A stretch of DNA of 64,000 bases, from IMG/VR virus record IMGVR_UViG_3300017987_005500; one strand, 5' to 3'. The notes under the pieces are model-generated. The model saw nothing but the letters and a program-made list of their open reading frames with translations, made no database searches and was not told the origin of the DNA. Shown piece by piece: positions 1,340 to 64,000 of this stretch. The first letter of the stretch is position 1. Every line of letters starts with the position of its first letter. Position numbers and translations under genes: made by a program. Origin of the DNA: a virus (taxonomy: Duplodnaviria; Heunggongvirae; Uroviricota; Caudoviricetes).

Positions 1340-1675
1340 ATGACAGTTGAATTAATATTGCGTACAGATAGGGATCGCCTCCTTATAAGAGAAAGAAGGG
1401 TTAACGATATTGTTGATCCATATGAAGAAAGTGATGTGTATGGAGAAGAGATGACTGACTATACACATGAAATAGAAAAAAGATTAATTGAGCTTATTGC
1501 ATATACTCCAAAAGATCCTGAAGAACTCTCAAAAATAATTGAGAGTGCTAAACAAGAGTTTGCAAATCATTTGCTCTATGCAACGAAAAATGGAATCAGG
1601 CAAACACTCACACATCTTTGTATGCATGATGATATATCATTTAGAATAATTGATGAAAGTGACAGGAACCCATAA
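1340..1675 (+). CDS. Hypothetical protein (111 aa)
   Basis: Intact ORF; stop overlaps next start (ATGA coupling). Confidence 0.5.
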   Translation: MTVELILRTDRDRLLIRERRVNDIVDPYEESDVYGEEMTDYTHEIEKRLIELIAYTPKDPEELSKIIESAKQEFANHLLYATKNGIRQTLTHLCMHDDISFRIIDESDRNP

Positions 1676-3036
1676 TGATTGACGCGGATAAAATTGTTGA
1701 GACGCTATGTAAGTGTGGTTATGAAGCTTACATAGTTGGTGGAGCTGTGCGTGATATGTTTCTTAGCAAAGATCCTAATGATGAGGACATTGTCACAAAC
1801 GCTTCACCCGAAGAAATTGGATTGATTTTCAAAGATGAAAAAGTGGACATGGTAGGTGCTAACTTCCTGGTAACATTAGTAAATGGTATTGATGTCTCAA
1901 CATACCGCAAAGATATGAATACAAAACCAGGAAGGGAGAATTGTCAAGTAACTCAATGTAAAACTATTCAAGAGGATTTACATAAAAGGGATTTTACAAT
2001 TAATGCCATTGCGACATGTCCTTATACTGGGGAAATCATAGATCCATTTGATGGGAGAGAAGACTTAAAGAATAAAGTTATAAGATTTGTAGGTGAACCT
2101 GGTCAAAGAATTAAAGAGGATTATTTACGAATGTTAAGAGCTGCTAGATTTTGTTGCTTAATTAAAGGGACAATTCATCCAGACACAATGGATGCTCTTA
2201 AAGGTCATGCATATTTAGTTAATAATATAGCTTTTGAAAGAATAAGAACTGAACTCTTGAAAGTTATGGAATATGATGAACCAAGTATATTCTTTGATGT
2301 ATTATATAAAGCAGGAATTCTTGAAATATTATTTCCTGAACTTTATTTTATGTATGGACATACTGGAGGAAAGTATCATCAGGAAACTTTAGATGTTCAT
2401 TTCAAAATAACTGGAGATGTATTATCTCCAAATGATAAGATGTTAAGATTAACTGGTTACCTACATGACATAGGAAAACCAGCTGCTTATGCGATGAATG
2501 ATGGTGAAAATTTTGTTGATCATGAAAAGTATGGCGCTGATTTAGTTAGACATTATCTCACGAAATATAAATTTTCAACTGAGGAAATTGAAAGGTCTAC
2601 TAATTTAGTAAAGTATCACATGAGATCATTTTCACAGACTATCACAAATAAAGCAATTCGACGTATGTTAAGAAAATTTGTGGAACATAATATAAATTGG
2701 AAGGATTGGTTTAAACTTAAAGTTGCTGATAATTTAGCAAATATAGGAAAACCAAAATACACCAAAAAAGAGATTAAAGCATTTTCATTGAAAGTTAGAG
2801 AAGCAATGAACTATGAGGATAAATGCTTTAAAATTACCGACTTAAATATAAATGGGAATCAAGTAATGGAAATTACAGGATTATCACCCGGTAAAGAAAT
2901 CGGAGAAATCTTATCTCATTTATTTGACATTGTAATAGATACGCCTCAAATGAATAACTACGAAACTTTAAGTAATGTTGTTACTGGAATCTATAAACGA
3001 AAAAAAGAGGAGATGTCAAATGAAAGCGGTATCTAA
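1675..3036 (+). CDS. cca: CCA-adding enzyme / tRNA nucleotidyltransferase with HD domain
   Basis: N-terminal 'GGAVRDMFLSKDPNDEDIVT' is the class-II nucleotidyltransferase head motif (GGxVRDxLLGxxxxDxDxxT); 'LHDIGK' is an HD motif; 453 aa. Confidence 0.8.
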   Translation: MIDADKIVETLCKCGYEAYIVGGAVRDMFLSKDPNDEDIVTNASPEEIGLIFKDEKVDMVGANFLVTLVNGIDVSTYRKDMNTKPGRENCQVTQCKTIQEDLHKRDFTINAIATCPYTGEIIDPFDGREDLKNKVIRFVGEPGQRIKEDYLRMLRAARFCCLIKGTIHPDTMDALKGHAYLVNNIAFERIRTELLKVMEYDEPSIFFDVLYKAGILEILFPELYFMYGHTGGKYHQETLDVHFKITGDVLSPNDKMLRLTGYLHDIGKPAAYAMNDGENFVDHEKYGADLVRHYLTKYKFSTEEIERSTNLVKYHMRSFSQTITNKAIRRMLRKFVEHNINWKDWFKLKVADNLANIGKPKYTKKEIKAFSLKVREAMNYEDKCFKITDLNINGNQVMEITGLSPGKEIGEILSHLFDIVIDTPQMNNYETLSNVVTGIYKRKKEEMSNESGI

Positions 3037-36723: not shown

Positions 36724-36799
36724 TGGAGCCTATGAGAGGAATCGAACCCCCAACTTTCTCCTTACAAGGGAGACACTCTGCCAATTGAGTTACATAGGC
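36724..36799 (-). tRNA. tRNA-Thr (anticodon TGT)
   Basis: Acceptor gcctatg/cataggc, D arm actc-aattggca-gagt, anticodon arm 'tctcc-cttgtaa-ggaga', T arm with two G.U pairs; CCA encoded. Confidence 0.65.
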
Positions 36800-41060: not shown

Positions 41061-41145
41061 AAGATTTCTAAAGTACCATAAAAAGTCCCCGTATAAATTC
41101 TTAAAACTTTTACTAAACTAAGGTAGGGTAAAAAGCATATCGTAA

Positions 41146-41225
41146 AATTAATGTCCGGACTTGAACCGGAAACATCTTGCTTAGTAGGCAAGTACTCTAA
41201 CCAATTGAGCTACTTTATTTTCTAA
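41146..41225 (-). ncRNA. tRNA-like gene, anticodon loop reads ACT, weakly paired acceptor
   Basis: Good D arm 'gctc-aattggtta-gagt', anticodon arm 'cttgc-ctactaa-gcaag', T arm 'tccgg-ttcaagt-ccgga'. Acceptor strands 'aataaag'/'cattaat' pair at only 5/7. Confidence 0.35.
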
Positions 41226-41489: not shown

Positions 41490-41565
41490 TGGAGTATATT
41501 GAAGGAGTTGAACCTTCGACATCAAAATTACAAGTTTTGTGCTCTACCAACTGAGCTAAGTATAC
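41490..41565 (-). tRNA. tRNA-Thr (anticodon TGT), second copy
   Basis: Acceptor gtatact/aatatac (one mismatch), D arm 'gctc-agttggta-gagc', anticodon arm 'caaaa-cttgtaa-ttttg', T arm 'gaagg-ttcaact-ccttc', CCA encoded. Confidence 0.6.
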
Positions 41566-51622: not shown

Positions 51623-52069
51623 TTAAAATGGGTCAATTGGCATGCAAACAATATCATCTATACAACCTGTCACTTTTAATTTATATTCAGTTTGTCTTTT
51701 ATACATCTTTGAAATAATTAAAGCATAACCTGCAGCTTCAAGAAAATTATTAAAAAGTCCAAACCAAAATGTTTTTCCAGTTCTTAAATCTCTTAATTCA
51801 CTTTGATAATGATCAGCATATCTTGTTGATACATTATGCTGTATATCAATCTTTCCACCTTCTGGATGGAGTTTAATGAAACTTCTTTCATAATTGATGT
51901 TGATAAACCATCTTTTGTATAAACCGCTTTTTGCAAATGTATTATTTAAAATAAATTGCTGTGCATCATCAACTGCTTTTCGTACTTCTTTCTCATGTAG
52001 CATAATTGTCTCCAAACTTCGTAATTCGTCATGGTACCCCAGGCAGGATTCGAACCTGCGCGCAAACAT
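51623..52069 (-). CDS. Hypothetical protein (148 aa)
   Basis: ORF; function not recognisable. Confidence 0.45.
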   Translation of the reverse strand: MFARRFESCLGYHDELRSLETIMLHEKEVRKAVDDAQQFILNNTFAKSGLYKRWFININYERSFIKLHPEGGKIDIQHNVSTRYADHYQSELRDLRTGKTFWFGLFNNFLEAAGYALIISKMYKRQTEYKLKVTGCIDDIVCMPIDPF

Positions 52070-52107
52070 TTAGAGTGTCCTGCTCTAAACCACTGAGCTA
52101 CTGGGGC
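52032..52107 (-). tRNA. Suppressor tRNA (anticodon CTA, reads UAG amber)
   Basis: Acceptor gccccag/ctggggt, D arm 'gctc-agtggttta-gagc', anticodon arm 'ggaca-ctctaaa-tgttt' (two G.U pairs), T arm 'gcagg-ttcgaat-cctgc', CCA encoded. Confidence 0.5.
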
Positions 52108-53468: not shown

Positions 53469-53885
53469 TTATTCTAAGATTAATCCCTCAATTGGAGGGA
53501 TTTGTGCATATACCCACCATGCTTGCTTTTCACCATTCATTCTTGAATTTTCAGGTTGGGTTGTATGAGACCAATCTGAAGTTTTAGTTTCTCCATCAAC
53601 TAAAGTTATTGATCTAATTATAAATATATAATGACCAACTTTATTAAAAGTATATGTTGTTGATATACTTGTCGTGGACCCTAAATCTATGAGTTGTTCT
53701 GTCTCAGCATGATATGCTTTAATCTCATATATGATAATATTATCAATAGGTTCCCAACCAAGTTCAATTGTATCACCAACATAAACCCATCGAGTAGCGA
53801 ATACATAATGACCTTTTTCAAATGCATGAATGTATGAAGCAAACATTGAAATAAGCATAAATGAAATTAAAATTATTTTTTTCAT
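53469..53885 (-). CDS. Secreted FN3/Ig-like protein, paralog A (138 aa)
   Basis: Signal peptide 'MKKIILISFMLISMFASYIHA'; shared C-terminus 'WVYAQIPPIEGLILE'. Confidence 0.5.
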   Translation of the reverse strand: MKKIILISFMLISMFASYIHAFEKGHYVFATRWVYVGDTIELGWEPIDNIIIYEIKAYHAETEQLIDLGSTTSISTTYTFNKVGHYIFIIRSITLVDGETKTSDWSHTTQPENSRMNGEKQAWWVYAQIPPIEGLILE

Positions 53886-53887
53886 AT

Positions 53888-54286
53888 TTACTCCAATATA
53901 AGGTCTTCAATAGGTGGTATTTGTGCATATATCCAAAAACTTCTATGTTCTCCATTTACTCTACAATTTTCAGATTCTGATGTTATTGTCCATGGTGATT
54001 CTCCAACATCATTTAATGCTCTTAATTTAAGAAAATAATGACCAACTCTTTTTAATACAAATGAAATTTGTATATTTGGAGTTTTCCCAAGAGCAGTTAC
54101 TTGATCAGTTTCAACATGAATCAATAAAACTTCATATTCAGTTGCATTACTTACAGTGCTCCATTTAGCAGTAATTGTATCTCCTGAATAATTCCAATAA
54201 GTTGCATGATCATGAAGTCCTGGTTCAATTGCATAAACTGGAGAAGTAAAAAAAATAATAAGAAAGATTAAAATGATTTTTTTCAT
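53888..54286 (-). CDS. Secreted FN3/Ig-like protein, paralog B (132 aa)
   Basis: Signal peptide 'MKKIILIFLIIFFTSPVYA'; 'WIYAQIPPIEDLILE'; 'TEYEVLLIH' FN3-like. Confidence 0.5.
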   Translation of the reverse strand: MKKIILIFLIIFFTSPVYAIEPGLHDHATYWNYSGDTITAKWSTVSNATEYEVLLIHVETDQVTALGKTPNIQISFVLKRVGHYFLKLRALNDVGESPWTITSESENCRVNGEHRSFWIYAQIPPIEDLILE

Positions 54287-55057: not shown

Positions 55058-55330
55058 TTATTCGTGATAACCTTCATCATAAAATACTTTGTCAACTTCA
55101 TCGATCCAATGCATTATCTCATCTGTCCCAATGTTATGTTCTGAATTGTTCTCACATTTAAAATCTAAATAAGCATTATCACCATCAGGACAAGTTGTGA
55201 TATTTTGATCAACTCTTTTAAGCTGAATATTGTTATTATTAGAAATTGAAAATGTTTTAGTTGGAGTTTTATAATCAACTAAAATATTTCCTCCACATTC
55301 AGGACATTTTTTTAGAGACATTTTTACCAC
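55058..55330 (-). CDS. Small zinc-ribbon protein (90 aa)
   Basis: 'CPECGG...CPDG...C'. Confidence 0.4.
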   Translation of the reverse strand: MVKMSLKKCPECGGNILVDYKTPTKTFSISNNNNIQLKRVDQNITTCPDGDNAYLDFKCENNSEHNIGTDEIMHWIDEVDKVFYDEGYHE

Positions 55331-55656
55331 CTGTCAATTCGACAACTTACGTTATTGTTTCCCCAACAAGAACATTCACAGTCAACTTCAACTGATTTCG
55401 GTCTTCCATCACCTCTATTAAATACAACGTCAGTTTCATAATCATTATCTTCGTCTTCATATTCCCACGGGTCAAAACTAAAATTATATGCTCCAGGATA
55501 TTTTGCTTTTATAACTTCAATTGCCACTTCTTCATATTCTTCGTCAGAGACACTTTGTGTTATAACTGAACAATAAATGCTTATAATTATAGCTCCACCA
55601 ACAAAAATAATTCCTCCAATGATTTTTAACCAATCAATTAAATCTTCAGTTCGCAT
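55324..55656 (-). CDS. Membrane-anchored protein (110 aa)
   Basis: N-terminal TM 'IIGGIIFVGGAIIISIYCSVI'; C-terminal Cys-rich 'CECSCWGNNNVSC'. Confidence 0.45.
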   Translation of the reverse strand: MRTEDLIDWLKIIGGIIFVGGAIIISIYCSVITQSVSDEEYEEVAIEVIKAKYPGAYNFSFDPWEYEDEDNDYETDVVFNRGDGRPKSVEVDCECSCWGNNNVSCRIDRW

Positions 55657-56377: not shown

Positions 56378-56466
56378 TGGCGGAGAGACTGGGATTTGAA
56401 CCCAGATGTGCTTTTACACACGTTCGATTAGCAGTCGAATGCACTACCTGATTATGCGACCTCTCC
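56378..56466 (-). tRNA. tRNA-Ser (anticodon GCT), class II
   Basis: Acceptor ggagagg/tctctcc (one G.U), anticodon arm 'ttcga-ctgctaa-tcgaa', T arm 'ctggg-ttcaaat-cccag', 89 nt, CCA encoded. Confidence 0.6.
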
Positions 56467-58789: not shown

Positions 58790-59260
58790 TTAAGGTGTTT
58801 TCGGTTGAGGCACATTTGCCTTCATGAAATCTTCAAAGTTTTCGCTGCTTTTCTTCTTTTGTTCAATTATTCGCTCTTCTCTTTTTTCCTCCTTTACTTT
58901 TTCTAAATTTTCATTTGATTCTACAATTGCCTCGGGAGTTTCTGGTATATATTCTTCTGCTTGTTGTGCGACTGTCTCAGCTCCCATATCACTCAATTTC
59001 TCTGGTTGCATATTTATTGCAAAGAAAAATGTGATAATTAATATTACACAAATCCATATTCCAGGAATCGCTATTGAAAGATTTTTCCATAATGTTGAAT
59101 GGACTTTATAGGAGTTTGTCTTTTCCTCACCTTTCAAATTAAGTTTGATGATTTCCTTTGACCTGTTCTTAATAAGCATAGATAAAAAGTAAGTCAAAAT
59201 AATTCCACCAACACACCACGCATACATCATTACATCAATGTAAACATTACCAATCTGCAT
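58790..59260 (-). CDS. Membrane protein (156 aa)
   Basis: Two N-terminal TM segments; Glu/Lys-rich C-terminus. Confidence 0.45.
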   Translation of the reverse strand: MQIGNVYIDVMMYAWCVGGIILTYFLSMLIKNRSKEIIKLNLKGEEKTNSYKVHSTLWKNLSIAIPGIWICVILIITFFFAINMQPEKLSDMGAETVAQQAEEYIPETPEAIVESNENLEKVKEEKREERIIEQKKKSSENFEDFMKANVPQPKTP

Positions 59261-59789: not shown

Positions 59790-59981
59790 TTAACCAAAAT
59801 AAGCATTGAGTGCCCATCCAGCTGAAAATACAATGCCCATAGCATAACAAGCTAATGAAATGAATGGAGTTAAAAAGTCATAGTCAGATGCTTTTTCTTT
59901 TCCTATCATATATCCAACTACAAAGAATGCTGATGTAAACACTACTGGAATGATCCAATGTGGTAAAGTTATTGTAAACAT
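59790..59981 (-). CDS. Small membrane protein (63 aa)
   Basis: Two hydrophobic segments. Confidence 0.35.
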   Translation of the reverse strand: MFTITLPHWIIPVVFTSAFFVVGYMIGKEKASDYDFLTPFISLACYAMGIVFSAGWALNAYFG

Positions 59982-59995
59982 AATAAATCCTTATG

Positions 59996-60071
59996 GGGTG
60001 AGCGACGAGACTTGAACTCGCAACCACCGGGACCACAACCCAGCGCTCTACCATTGAGCTACACCCACCAT
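59996..60071 (-). tRNA. tRNA-His (anticodon GTG) with G-1
   Basis: Extra 5' G pairing with discriminator C (His hallmark). Acceptor gtgggtg/cgctcac, D arm 'gctc-aatggta-gagc', anticodon arm 'ctggg-ttgtggt-cccgg', T arm 'gcgag-ttcaagt-ctcgt', CCA encoded. Confidence 0.65.
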
Positions 60072-60077
60072 AAAACA

Positions 60078-60272
60078 TTATTCTTTACATGAAACTGTAA
60101 GACAACCGCAATGTGTACAAAGTTGATCGCTTACATAACCTTGACATTTATCTTCCCCATCGCCTCCTATACAATGATATTTTCCCCCATTCTTAATATA
60201 TCTTGGACAATCATTATAATCGACCGGGATCATACCTGCATCTTCATATTCTTGACAAGGAATTGTTTTCAT
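60078..60272 (-). CDS. Small Cys-rich protein (64 aa)
   Basis: 'C..C...C..C..C' pattern. Confidence 0.35.
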   Translation of the reverse strand: MKTIPCQEYEDAGMIPVDYNDCPRYIKNGGKYHCIGGDGEDKCQGYVSDQLCTHCGCLTVSCKE

Positions 60273-60273
60273 T

Positions 60274-60567
60274 TTAAGGTCCTGTTTTCTTTAGTAAAGT
60301 ATTAAAAATATCAGAAGCTTTTTCCTTTCCAGCACTAGTTGCTTCATCAATCTTTTCCGCTTTCTCTTTAGCATAACCAGAGACATTTTTATCAAATTTA
60401 TCAACAACTTGACCTATTTGAGTTGAAATTTGCTTAACTTCAGTGACAGCTTGATCACCAACTTCTTTTACTTCAGCTATCATAAAAGAAGCAACTATAA
60501 GCATTATCAACAACTCAATTAACCACGACACCCAATTATTCGCTATAATTTCCATTATCTTATTCAT
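60274..60567 (-). CDS. Membrane-anchored protein (97 aa)
   Basis: N-terminal TM 'WVSWLIELLIMLIVASFMIA'. Confidence 0.4.
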   Translation of the reverse strand: MNKIMEIIANNWVSWLIELLIMLIVASFMIAEVKEVGDQAVTEVKQISTQIGQVVDKFDKNVSGYAKEKAEKIDEATSAGKEKASDIFNTLLKKTGP

Positions 60568-61051: not shown

Positions 61052-61885
61052 TTAATTTTTAGCTTGAAGTCTCTCATATTCTTCCTTCGCAAATTCACTG
61101 GCGTATGCAATTAATAACATAACATCGCACTCATAAAATCCTGAAGCATTGAAACAATTAACTTCAATAACTTTTAAACCATCCGCTGTTTGACATATAT
61201 CAAGAGTATAAGCTTTCTCAACTTGCCAATCAGCTCTTGCAATTGATAAGGCAAATTCAATAACATTTCCTGGCATATCAAAAGCTTCCGCTGATTGATA
61301 TAACCTATTGTGTTTCTTATACATTGAACCTGTCACAACTTCTTTATCAATTACAACAAATCTCCATTCTGCCCAAATATCTTTAACAGAACTTATTGTA
61401 ACTTCTGATTTAATGGTTATGTTTTTAAATTGACTAGTTGAATCATTAATGACGTCATACCATTTTTCAAATTCATACTTATCAAAAACATCACCTGAGA
61501 ATAGTTTAAAATCAGAGTTTGGTCTTATAAATAATGGAGGTCCGTCAAAATGATCTAATACTTCATATATTTTCATAACCTTAGAGTCATGATTTAACCA
61601 TTTTTCCCCATATTGTTTTCCCCATACGCTTGGTTTAAATGTCTCCTCATTAAACCACATACCTGGAAAATATTTACCGCTTTTAACTATGTTCTTTAAT
61701 AATGTCGTAGTTCCATATGCTAAAACAGGACCGTCATGGTCAGTAATTCCCTCTGGTAAACAATCTGCAAAGGGAATTATTTTAACTAAGTCATATGGAA
61801 GCTCTTGTCTTTCAAAGCAATTGATCATTTTATCAACTGCTTTTTCTTTAAAAATATTTGTCTGTAATATCCATTTGGTTTTCAT
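61052..61885 (-). CDS. Hypothetical enzyme, possible ATP-grasp-like fold (277 aa)
   Basis: C-terminal 'YTLDICQTADGLKVIEVNCFNASGF' resembles the ATP-grasp 'D..g..vlEvN' segment; weak. Confidence 0.3.
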   Translation of the reverse strand: MKTKWILQTNIFKEKAVDKMINCFERQELPYDLVKIIPFADCLPEGITDHDGPVLAYGTTTLLKNIVKSGKYFPGMWFNEETFKPSVWGKQYGEKWLNHDSKVMKIYEVLDHFDGPPLFIRPNSDFKLFSGDVFDKYEFEKWYDVINDSTSQFKNITIKSEVTISSVKDIWAEWRFVVIDKEVVTGSMYKKHNRLYQSAEAFDMPGNVIEFALSIARADWQVEKAYTLDICQTADGLKVIEVNCFNASGFYECDVMLLIAYASEFAKEEYERLQAKN

Positions 61886-62304
61886 CGTACTATCTTTTTA
61901 TCAGCATATTCACAATCACGACCATCACATACTGCTGTAACAATTACAGGTAAATTATCTCGATTTGTGCCAATTGCCCAACATAACATATGAGATTTTA
62001 AATAAGATTCTGAAAATCTTGTTCCCGTATTTGAACAATCATCACATTCACCTGAAAATAAATCATCGCAATTACAAGTTATATTACGCATTTCTGAATG
62101 ATCTCTCTTCACATATGTTTGCATAGTTTCAATCATAATAGGTTTTATAGCATAAGAAACATCTTCTACGCTGTGAGATGTTGAGGTCATTGTTGTGGCA
62201 GTTCCAAATATCATTGGAACTACAATTGCGCAAACTATTCCAATTATTGCAATTACTATCATCAATTCAACTAATGTAAAACCTTTCGCTTTTTCTTTTT
62301 TCAT
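61882..62304 (-). CDS. Type IV pilin / pseudopilin-like protein with class-III signal peptide
   Basis: 'MKKEKAKG|FTLVELMIVIAIIGIVCAIVVPMIFG' is the canonical prepilin leader + G/FTLxE + hydrophobic helix; Cys-rich C-terminal domain. In the ORF track it is the C-terminal part of 61882..63120. Confidence 0.55.
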   Translation of the reverse strand: MKKEKAKGFTLVELMIVIAIIGIVCAIVVPMIFGTATTMTSTSHSVEDVSYAIKPIMIETMQTYVKRDHSEMRNITCNCDDLFSGECDDCSNTGTRFSESYLKSHMLCWAIGTNRDNLPVIVTAVCDGRDCEYADKKIVR

Positions 62305-62459
62305 GATTTTCTTATACCTTTCTTGATCTTCTTTAGTAGGTTCCCAATCTAAAATACCTAAGTCCTTATCAATCTCCCATTGTTCTCTTGCTGAGAGATA
62401 TTTATAATTACCTGGTCTTTTCAATGCTTGCTCTAATGACATTGTCAAATTTCCTTTTA

Positions 62460-62533
62460 TGGTAGCCCTGCTCGGACTTGAACCGAGAACATCTTGCTTG
62501 TAAGGACAGTGCTCTTCGCGCTGAGCTATAGCT
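62460..62533 (-). ncRNA. tRNA-like element (degenerate), embedded in-frame between HNH and pilin-like coding sequences
   Basis: T arm 'ctcgg-ttcaagt-ccgag' + 'cagggct a CCA', D arm 'gctc-agcgcgaa-gagc'. Anticodon stem is mismatched ('ctgtc-cttacaa-gcaag'). No complementary 5' acceptor. Confidence 0.3.
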
Positions 62534-62539
62534 TTTTTC

Positions 62540-63120
62540 CCAACAATATATGTTTCTGTTAATGAATGACAATTTGGGCAAAGTAAATCTAAATTTTCAG
62601 GTCTATTATTAGTCCAGTCTCCATCTTTATGATGTAATTGCAATGGGACTTTATTTGTAGTAGGATGTATTTCATCCCATTTGCATATAGAACATTGATT
62701 ATTATATTTTTCAATTAACCATTTTTTCATAAATCCTTGAGGAGATTTATATTTATTTGGATTTTTAAACCAATCTTCTAATTTGTCATTGTAAAGTTTA
62801 TTATGATAGCATTTAAAATTACAATATTGTCTATTGGTTATCTCATTCTCGCAAAATAAACATTTATTTATAGTTGGAGTTTTTGGTTCCCCAGTTCCTC
62901 CAAGACTTATACTTATTTTCCTTTTTGTTTCTTCATTATGTACTCTTCCTTTATTAGTAATTGTTGCTGAACAACTTAAAGAGCAGAATTTATTTTGATC
63001 ACCAATTAACTTATTATTACATTCTGGATTTTCACAAATTCGCAATCCTTTGCAATGTTTTTTATGCATATCATAATGCTGACTTGATTTAAAACTTCGC
63101 CCACAAATACATTCTATCAT
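62540..63120 (-). CDS. HNH endonuclease (N-terminal part of the 61882..63120 ORF)
   Basis: 'LQLHHKDGDWTNNRPENLDLLCPNCHSLTE' HNH box; N-terminal CxxC/HxxC clusters. No stop codon before the tRNA-like element, so the 3' boundary is uncertain. Confidence 0.55.
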
Positions 63121-63425: not shown

Positions 63426-63677
63426 TCAAAATTCCTTTCGTTTAAATTTCTCATGCCATGCTTCCATATTTTCTCCCCGATATTCTTTTGGCAAACTTTC
63501 AACATAAGTAATATGATCTTGCCAATGAGGTTTTATAAGGGGATGAGCATGTTTAAATGCTTCGTCATATTCGCCTTTTAAAAGCAATGTCGTACATGAT
63601 CCAGGATAAATTCCATGACTTACCCATGTTTCAATTGCTTCTATAATTGATGTGTCAACTCTTAATTCTTTAGTCAT
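63426..63677 (-). CDS. Hypothetical protein (83 aa)
   Basis: Small ORF. Confidence 0.4.
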   Translation of the reverse strand: MTKELRVDTSIIEAIETWVSHGIYPGSCTTLLLKGEYDEAFKHAHPLIKPHWQDHITYVESLPKEYRGENMEAWHEKFKRKEF

Positions 63678-64000
63678 TTATATCTAACCTTTACTAATTG
63701 CAATGTTAAAAATGTACATGTCATAACTGGTCCAAAACAAAATAATACTAAATCCATTAAAATTGATTCTTGATCAAGTTTAAATGAAAATAACCAATTA
63801 ATTATGCCACATATCAACCATGGCCAACCCATAACATTTCCCATAGCTAAGAAAATTGAACATAAAAGGGAATAAACTACAAATGCGCTATGAGTAATTA
63901 CTTGTGTTCTCATTTTTGAAAAAAGTTTAAATTCTTCTTTCAATTCACATGACTCTGCACAAATCATATGAACCATACAATGATGACAAGGATTTTTCAT
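63674..64000 (-). CDS. Membrane protein, partial at window edge
   Basis: Multiple hydrophobic segments; ORF open at window end. Confidence 0.4.
   Translation of the reverse strand: MKNPCHHCMVHMICAESCELKEEFKLFSKMRTQVITHSAFVVYSLLCSIFLAMGNVMGWPWLICGIINWLFSFKLDQESILMDLVLFCFGPVMTCTFLTLQLVKVRYK

Follow-up and report, generated by a model that had tools for sequence, protein, structure and literature searches.

We analysed a 64-kb stretch of DNA from an uncultured tailed phage (IMG/VR record IMGVR_UViG_3300017987_005500; the whole stretch, with a GC content of 31%, is hereafter the window), in which one open reading frame (ORF) at positions 61882-63120 of the minus strand runs through 412 codons. 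This ORF is not one gene. It consists of four elements that lie head to tail on the minus strand and share a frame by coincidence: a free-standing HNH gene, a decayed tRNA-Val(UAC), a small domain that we call the N-module, and a pilin-like protein. The gene of interest is the ORF of 186 amino acids (aa) at 61882-62442 (minus strand), in which the N-module and the pilin-like part are joined. We cautiously favor an interpretation in which the four elements are separate and the 186-aa fusion acts on the pilus or pseudopilus of the host. The parts of the locus are as follows.

62534-63120, minus strand: free-standing HNH homing-endonuclease gene, without a stop codon of its own.
62460-62533, minus strand: tRNA-Val(UAC) remnant, recognised by the Rfam tRNA model and by alignment to the tRNA of sister strains.
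62451-62457, minus strand: Shine-Dalgarno (SD) site AAAGGAA that serves the 186-aa gene and immediately follows the CCA of the tRNA remnant.
62305-62442, minus strand: N-module, aa 1-46 of the 186-aa gene, supported by homologues and by AlphaFold2 (AF2).
62281-62304, minus strand: basic leader of the prepilin type, MKKEKAKG (aa 47-54), with Gly-1 as its last residue; translation could also start internally at Met47, and the N_methyl match begins here.
62203-62280, minus strand: pilin alpha1-N helix FTLVELMIVIAIIGIVCAIVVPMIFG, a membrane segment with the predicted prepilin-peptidase site.
61885-62202, minus strand: part predicted to be extracytoplasmic, in which a seven-cysteine domain (core 61891-62118) follows an amphipathic helix.
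61882-61885, minus strand: ATGA overlap between the TGA of the pilin-like gene and the ATG of an R2K ATP-grasp gene (61052-61885).

The stop codon of the upstream gene overlaps the ATG of the 412-aa ORF as ATGA (63117-63120). An identical 412-aa ORF was recorded in eight assembled contigs, among them one with a length of 148.5 kb and another from the 0.2-1 Mb class, and is therefore no assembly error. On all eight, the public gene calls give a single 412-aa gene. These calls, and the length of a frame that stays free of stops over 1239 nt at 31% GC, speak for a single functional protein in which the pilin helix would tether an HNH nuclease to the membrane; we nevertheless consider such a protein extremely improbable. 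Its middle 25 codons are the tRNA remnant, which can be aligned base for base to an intact tRNA-Val of sister strains, in which the upstream ORF, for an unrelated nuclease, ends within the tRNA and the pilin-like gene is a separate one. Moreover, a normal SD site and ATG lie directly 3' of the remnant, and the N-module is N-terminal in every homologue. Reading on from the HNH gene requires about 25 stop-free codons of 52% GC sequence in the right frame, for which a rough estimate of the chance is 10%, and passage through the tRNA remnant is unremarkable. The 412-aa "protein" is an artefact of ORF scanning, or at most a rare read-through product. A preliminary description of this DNA, made from the sequence alone, had called the ORF stop-free and chimeric, and it is both: its parts match separate families. 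That description counted three parts (HNH, tRNA-like and pilin), all of which were recovered here, and missed the fourth, the 46-aa domain at 62305-62442 in the same frame.

The HNH part matched PHROG HNH endonuclease families (E = 3.5e-15 to 1e-13) and carries the full CxxC...HH...N...N...CxxCH motif (CSICKW...HHKDGDWTNNRPENLDLLCPNCH), with the HNH motif at about aa 131-190 and Zn-ribbon/NUMOD3-like repeats at the N-terminus. The Pfam models HNH_3 (18.4 bits, cut-off 24.8) and NUMOD3 (17.3 bits, cut-off 20.4) stayed under their thresholds. The gene start shows a weak SD (-1.0 kcal/mol) and the ATGA overlap with the gene upstream. Scanning IMG/VR with the HNH protein returned one distant locus and nothing else.

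The nature of this gene emerged from a comparison with sister strains, represented by contigs L001-L003 from other samples. Their identity to the window is 97% from the tRNA onward and 94% farther upstream, and the stretch between the two flanks is unrelated: about 0.9 kb in the window, with an 86-aa gene and the HNH gene, versus about 1.9 kb in the sisters, with a 176-aa gene, a 108-aa gene, a tRNA-Arg(GCG), an 82-aa gene and a 249-aa nuclease, the last three of which (L001:6853-7954) take the place of the HNH gene. The nuclease, which has Zn-ribbons and PHROG endonuclease/resolvase-like matches, is non-homologous to the HNH protein, and two unrelated nuclease genes thus fill one slot. The homology between the window and L001 breaks at base 4-5 of tRNA-Val, in the 5' acceptor strand. 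Replacement polymorphism of this kind, expected of free-standing homing endonuclease genes, was found here between near-identical genomes. The proposal in the preliminary description that the HNH gene is a mobile insertion beside a tRNA agrees well with the near-identical flanks, the unrelated nuclease between them and the breakpoint within tRNA-Val.

Similar behavior is known from the mob HNH genes and from segB of phage T4, the latter located in the T4 tRNA gene cluster. Common to these genes and the present one are presence/absence and replacement polymorphism among close phages, weak expression signals, a location in a tRNA cluster, and a breakpoint with a divergent patch inside the adjoining tRNA gene. 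They differ in that here the tRNA-Val has lost its normal 5' end and the tRNA-Arg of the sisters is missing, so the insertion appears costly; homing itself is predicted from sequence. The pattern is the signature of free-standing homing endonuclease genes that replace one another within the tRNA cluster of a phage, with collateral damage to the tRNA genes.

The damage can be followed base by base. The Rfam tRNA family (RF00005) matched 62463-62533 (minus strand) with 28.9 bits against a gathering score of 29 (E = 0.0014). Earlier, only a T arm, a 3' acceptor strand and a CCA had been discerned; the element is indeed tRNA-like, yet the match spans an entire, decayed tRNA, including the D arm and a UAC anticodon loop. 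Pairing is retained at three of the seven positions of the acceptor stem and three of the five of the anticodon stem, ARAGORN did not call the remnant as a tRNA, and its minimum-energy fold contains no cloverleaf (z = -0.4); it thus falls short of both the Rfam gathering score and a paired cloverleaf. The sister tRNA-Val (L001:7907-7983) is intact, with an ARAGORN call as tRNA-Val(tac), an Rfam score of 55.6 bits and a perfect acceptor stem (AGCCCUA/UGGGGCU). Relative to it, the remnant has the first 4 nt of its acceptor strand replaced and a diverged 33-nt 3' half, with a compensated T-stem change, one anticodon-stem base lost and a TAG gone. In the sisters, the 249-aa nuclease ORF also enters tRNA-Val and ends at this TAG, in the variable loop; because the window has lost it, the HNH frame continues into the next gene. 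No tRNA-Arg(GCG) and no callable tRNA-Val are present in this region of the window haplotype, whose tRNA-Val is in all appearance a non-functional remnant. Neither the lost tRNA-Arg nor any other tRNA of the window proved to be the source of the 3' half, and such an origin was rejected.

The 46 in-frame codons between the tRNA remnant and MKKEKAKG encode the N-module, MSLEQALKRPGNYKYLSAREQWEIDKDLGILDWEPTKEDQERYKKI. An exhaustive phmmer search against 1.84 billion representative proteins recovered dozens of homologues, most of them free-standing and 50-75 aa long, with the consensus ALKRPxNYxxLSxREQWxIDKxLGILDW[ED]PT (LDWEPT in the window copy), and none of the invariant residues of the family is missing from the window copy. 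Some N-modules are fused N-terminally to unrelated, often cysteine-rich C-terminal parts (P0002, P0011, P0019 and P0029), and one protein carries the module in tandem (P0035). Using an alignment of 44 sequences, AF2 predicted a small helical domain (predicted local distance difference test score, pLDDT, 92.6) whose last helix runs through MKKEKAK. No relative was found in Pfam, among PDB sequences or among PDB folds. Judged by its homologues, the N-module is a widespread, uncharacterised small phage protein family or domain, and it is predicted to be cytoplasmic. Its loci (L004, L005, L007-L009 and L011-L015) include contigs of metagenome-assembled genomes (MAGs) from five phyla. An attempt to deduce the host from these MAG contigs was dropped, as Clostridia, Bacteroidales, Armatimonadota, Aureispira and Alphaproteobacteria are all represented and no single host is indicated.

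Where the pilin-like product begins is decided by the choice between two ATG codons. Translation from Met1 (ATG at 62442) is supported by an anti-SD duplex of -5.6 kcal/mol at a spacing of 8, the median of 93 window genes; the same "CCATAAAGGAAATTT" context also follows a tRNA-Ser at 56378. The SD at Met47 is weaker (-3.9 kcal/mol, spacing 10). Gene callers on the sister contigs report the 186-aa gene, and the sister strains retain the whole ORF with four synonymous and two non-synonymous codon differences. The N-module has no stop of its own and could therefore be made only as a fusion with the pilin-like part. We conclude that the 186-aa fusion is probably the main product. The gene had previously been described as transcribed from its own start at MKKEKAKG; this was not established, given that the reading frame begins 46 codons farther upstream, at an ATG preceded by a typical SD, that these codons form an intact member of a conserved family, and that the sister gene calls give 186 aa.

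The choice of start sets the length of the leader, which is 8 aa from Met47 versus 54 aa, including a folded domain, from Met1. Accordingly, a tentative alternative is that the functional product is a canonical 140-aa prepilin translated from Met47 with the leader MKKEKAKG, the N-module being a neighboring gene that lost its stop and the fusion being incidental or minor. We consider this possible, though not the likelier case. The leader resembles those of true pilins (MKKQKLKG, MKKMNNKG, MKKAKG), and its length fits the 3-12 aa found in 115 of 124 viral prepilin ORFs (described below). The AAAGG upstream of Met47 lies inside the range of true starts (73rd percentile), and about here is also where most N-module homologues, as stand-alone proteins, come to an end. 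Against this, 18% of internal ATGs have an SD as good or better, and both "YKKIM" and the lysine-rich tail recur in N-module proteins that have no relation to pilins (P0006, "YQKIM"; P0007, "RKRRNKEKQK"). Furthermore, the leader residues belong to the final helix of the N-module in the AF2 model, the module itself is intact and expressible only as a fusion, and the in-frame junction is maintained in two haplotypes.

The prepilin signature itself is clear. The segment KG|FTLVELMIVIAIIGIVCAIVVP contains Gly-1, Phe+1, Glu+5, Gly14 and Pro22, the cleavage motif reads MKKEKAKG|FTLVE, and the hydrophobic helix is 26 residues long. Both N_methyl of Pfam (PF07963; 36.8 bits, cut-off 21.2) and TIGR02532 (29.4 bits, cut-off 16.3) scored above their curated cut-offs. 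The protein thus carries the cleavage/methylation motif of a class III signal and a hydrophobic alpha1-N helix with Gly14 and Pro22. All PDB sequence matches were type IV pilins or GspG and were limited to the helix segment, which aligns with pilins of Geobacter, Pseudomonas and Neisseria and with GspG. The prepilin leader, cleavage site and Glu+5 helix noted in the preliminary description are therefore borne out by both models and by the key residues, and we regard the pilin-derived gene as very probably genuine.

Beyond the helix, the protein continues into an ectodomain of about 100 aa with seven cysteines (CNC...ECDDC...CW...VC...C). Apart from the sister allele P0001, its sole homologue in the protein set searched with phmmer is P0024 (E = 5.6e-8, 38% identity), in which all seven cysteines are conserved. 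Word-indexed protein searches recovered only P0001 with the C-terminal domain alone and only P0024 with the C-terminal-domain alignment, and a metagenome scan with that alignment gave nothing. From a shallow alignment, AF2 predicted a long helix, a loop and four strands, an order compatible with a pilin, at a pLDDT of 52; the predicted structure of the ectodomain had no fold match. By the positive-inside rule, we infer that the cysteine-rich domain lies outside and that the N-module and lysine-rich leader remain in the cytoplasm. An external position would be consistent with disulfide formation.

Compared with bacterial type IV pilins and type II secretion system (T2SS) pseudopilins (PilA, PilE, GspG, ComGC), the protein has in common a leader ending in Gly, Phe+1, Glu+5, Gly14 and Pro22, a 26-residue hydrophobic helix, a mature size of 132 aa, cysteines near the C-terminus and, from the low-confidence AF2 model, the order of long helix, loop and four strands. 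The differences are that its gene lies outside a pilus operon, that it reaches no equivalog cut-off and that it possibly has a 54-aa leader including a folded domain. It does not belong to a specific pilin orthologue group.

Pilin-like genes are not rare in phages, contrary to the preliminary description, which had judged a phage-borne pilin unusual. Six PHROG families share the prepilin motif with the window protein (phrog_3433, annotated "pilin", and phrog_13280, 27437, 10597, 11596 and 11263; E = 5e-9 to 4e-6). The matches are confined to the N-terminal segment, except that to phrog_11596, which extends to about residue 143, and none of these families has the N-module or the cysteine-rich domain. 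In addition, we scanned IMG/VR with a degenerate DNA pattern for KGFT[L/F][I/V/M]EL, which matched at least 120 contigs, many of 50-490 kb, versus about one expected by chance (our own estimate, for uniform base composition); some of these contigs may carry host flanks. Among the matches listed, 124 viral ORFs bear the motif. Counted from the nearest Met, the leader is 3-12 aa long in 115 of them, and mature sizes cluster at 127-141 aa, compared with 132 aa for the window protein. None of the 124 resembles the window ectodomain. One recurrent family of viral pilin-like ORFs of about 135 aa mature length (FTLIELVMVTIILGILAAVAIPRY...WPYNPL...), unrelated to the window ectodomain, occurs at L019, L027, L042, L054, L064 and other loci, on contigs of about 17-120 kb.

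Published examples point in the same direction. Minor pilins of the FimU type that prophages encode are incorporated into the pilus of Pseudomonas and block phages that bind to its tip (Sztanko et al., Cell Rep 2026; PMC12952977). The phage-encoded examples given there comprise P-FimU of F10-like Pseudomonas prophages and P-PilA of Xylella prophages, and PilA-like proteins are listed for Xylella prophages and for four virulent phage groups (PMC12952977). The window gene shares with these (PMC12952977) the setting of a phage gene with a prepilin N-terminus, found in virulent carriers too, a presumed dependence on the pilus machinery of the host, and a proposed role in altering the pilus as a phage receptor. 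Their proteins, however, are homologous to host FimU or PilA over the full length, whereas the window protein matches pilin models over 25-50 N-terminal residues and alone has a seven-cysteine orphan ectodomain and a 46-aa phage domain before the leader. It may work like phage FimU and PilA; having no similarity to them past the N-terminal helix, it does not appear to be a member of either group.

The topology, cleavage, incorporation and benefit that follow are steps we infer. The pilin helix would insert into the host inner membrane with the N-terminus in and the C-terminus out. A host prepilin peptidase of the PilD/GspO type would cut between Gly54 and Phe55, and the mature 132-aa subunit would join the membrane pool of pilins. 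From there it could be built into the type IV pilus, the T2SS or the competence pseudopilus of the host, or could poison it. As with the FimU-like pilins of prophages, the likeliest payoff would be an altered or removed pilus receptor and thereby the exclusion of competing phages. That the protein may act through the pilus or pseudopilus machinery of the host is, in our view, an evenly balanced proposition; that the benefit might be superinfection exclusion in particular is a doubtful, more speculative one.

Several observations weigh against the proposed action on a host pilus, which presupposes a host with PilD and a pilus. The 64-kb window contains no second prepilin motif, no ORF for a polytopic PilD-like peptidase and no other pilus genes. 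Equivalog models (GspG, GspH, PilA, PpdD and ComGC/GD/GE/GF) scored far below their cut-offs and matched only 25-50 N-terminal residues; the best, GspG, reached 32.2 bits versus 88.85, and ComGC 27 versus 75, with matches within residues 50-100 of the 186-aa ORF. A 54-aa leader that includes a folded domain is atypical when set against the short leaders of the viral prepilin ORFs above. The sole distant homologue of the ectodomain, P0024, sits on an apparently chimeric contig of 515 bp, and its N-terminus is not readable. Finally, the codon differences between the two haplotypes are consistent with constraint and too few for a firm test of selection. With respect to the contig of P0024, its GC-rich start (L006:1-140) reads on the opposite strand like a fragment of a bacterial membrane permease, and the contig is either a chimeric assembly or an integration junction.

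Some of these observations would also fit a protein that has nothing to do with pili, in which the pilin-type helix is the mere membrane anchor of an unprocessed bitopic phage protein, for example one that blocks DNA injection or confers immunity, a lysis regulator, or a tether for the N-module. The absence of pilus genes nearby, the orphan ectodomain with no detectable pilin fold and the long folded extension at the N-terminus, un-pilin-like in itself, all suit such an anchor, and hydrophobic N-terminal segments are also found in several other small ORFs of the coding strand at 42-64 kb. Even so, we consider a plain anchor unlikely. It would not be expected to conserve a buried glutamate, while here every residue for processing and assembly is kept (Gly-1, Phe+1, Glu+5, Gly14 and Pro22), at 15 bits over the Pfam cut-off. 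The mature length of 132 aa falls within the main class of the viral pilin-like ORFs listed. At E <= 1, Pfam gave no match to any holin or spanin family, and identity as a holin or spanin was rejected on this ground.

Still less probable, and in our estimation very unlikely, is that the pilin-like gene is a decaying relic of a captured host gene with no present function. The gene does lie in a hyperplastic region shaped by homing endonucleases, and its orphan C-terminal domain and odd fusion architecture would suit a relic. The ORF, however, is intact over 186 codons at 31% GC, is translationally coupled to the next gene, and is kept in two haplotypes with the four synonymous and two non-synonymous changes noted above; in addition, the cysteines of its ectodomain are all conserved in a homologue of 38% identity.

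Returning to the fusion that we favor, its architecture of N-module followed by prepilin was found nowhere else among the 1.84 billion proteins, the near-identical sister allele P0001 aside, nor in the 124 viral prepilin ORFs among the matches listed. Its distinctive features are the in-frame N-terminal fusion of a phage domain and the orphan cysteine-rich ectodomain; the pilin-like kind of protein as such is already known, while a 54-aa "leader" formed by an N-module is unusual. A speculative and rather improbable extension is that the 186-aa ORF encodes a two-in-one precursor, from which cleavage at Gly54|Phe55 would free both a 54-aa cytoplasmic N-module effector and the mature pilin-like subunit. 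The release of a factor into the cytoplasm would then depend on whether the host has type IV pilus or T2SS machinery and on how active that machinery is.

If the protein enters a pilus or pseudopilus, an uncultured, distant T4-like virulent phage would join the recently recognised phages that remodel type IV pili with pilin-like subunits of their own, and its subunit would have an ectodomain with no relation to known pilins. The fusion also offers an entry to the function of the widespread and uncharacterised N-module, and it raises the question of whether prepilin peptidases can process long, folded leaders. Independently of the pilin-like protein, the HNH/tRNA part provides a clear natural case in which the turnover of homing endonucleases destroys phage tRNA genes. 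It further calls for caution in annotation: long ORFs that run through tRNA genes are artefacts, and public calls list a 412-aa protein here.

Directly downstream of the pilin-like gene, the following gene was annotated.

61052-61885, minus strand: R2K-clade ATP-grasp gene (PF14243/R2K_3, E = 5.7e-18; phrog_7313).

It is translationally coupled to the pilin-like gene, and the same ATGA arrangement of the two genes is present in the sister contigs. R2K homologues are encoded by phages that infect Ralstonia, Xanthomonas, Caulobacter, Rhizobium and other hosts; many of these phages have genomes larger than 300 kb. A functional link between R2K and pilin was considered and dropped, as two jumbo-phage R2K loci that we examined had no prepilin motif nearby.

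Relatives of the region as a whole were few. Scans of IMG/VR with the pilin ORF, the R2K neighbor and the C-terminal-domain alignment found none, and tblastn of the pilin part against 50,697 GenBank phages gave no match. The only blastn match of the 3-kb region was a 169-bp segment with 72.5% identity to an Enterococcus phage. Promoter and terminator scans performed no better than chance level.

The window codes for a major head protein, a portal, a family-A-type DNA polymerase, a DnaB helicase and a CCA-adding enzyme. At about 23% identity, the head protein is only distantly similar to the gp23 of T4-like phages in culture, and the phage is therefore assigned as an uncultured, distant T4-like phage. 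ARAGORN identified 16 tRNAs, which form a 24-kb island at 36-60 kb. Features of this part of the genome, together with the CCA-adding enzyme, are listed here.

1675-3036, plus strand: CCA-adding enzyme.
36724-36799 and 41490-41565, minus strand: two copies of tRNA-Thr(UGU).
41145-41220, minus strand: tRNA-Ser with the unusual anticodon ACU.
52032-52107, minus strand: tRNA labelled "Pyl" by ARAGORN, with anticodon CUA; a potential amber suppressor.
59884-60078, minus strand: second ORF through a tRNA (MFYGGCSSMVERWVVV...), crossing tRNA-His at 59994-60068.

ORFs that cross tRNA genes thus recur in the window, the 412-aa ORF being one and that at 59884-60078 another. Stop codons of the 93 ORFs are TAA in 58, TGA in 27 and TAG in 8. 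Recoding of TAG through the tRNA(CUA), with distorted ORF calls as its result, was considered and dropped, as the long ORFs have no in-frame TAG in mid-gene. An RtcB gene lies farther upstream in the sister contig L001. Small ORFs with one or two hydrophobic segments are numerous at 42000-64000 (minus strand), scattered among the tRNAs; examples are those at 53469-53885, 53888-54286, 55324-55656, 58790-59260, 59790-59981, 60274-60567 and 63674-64000.

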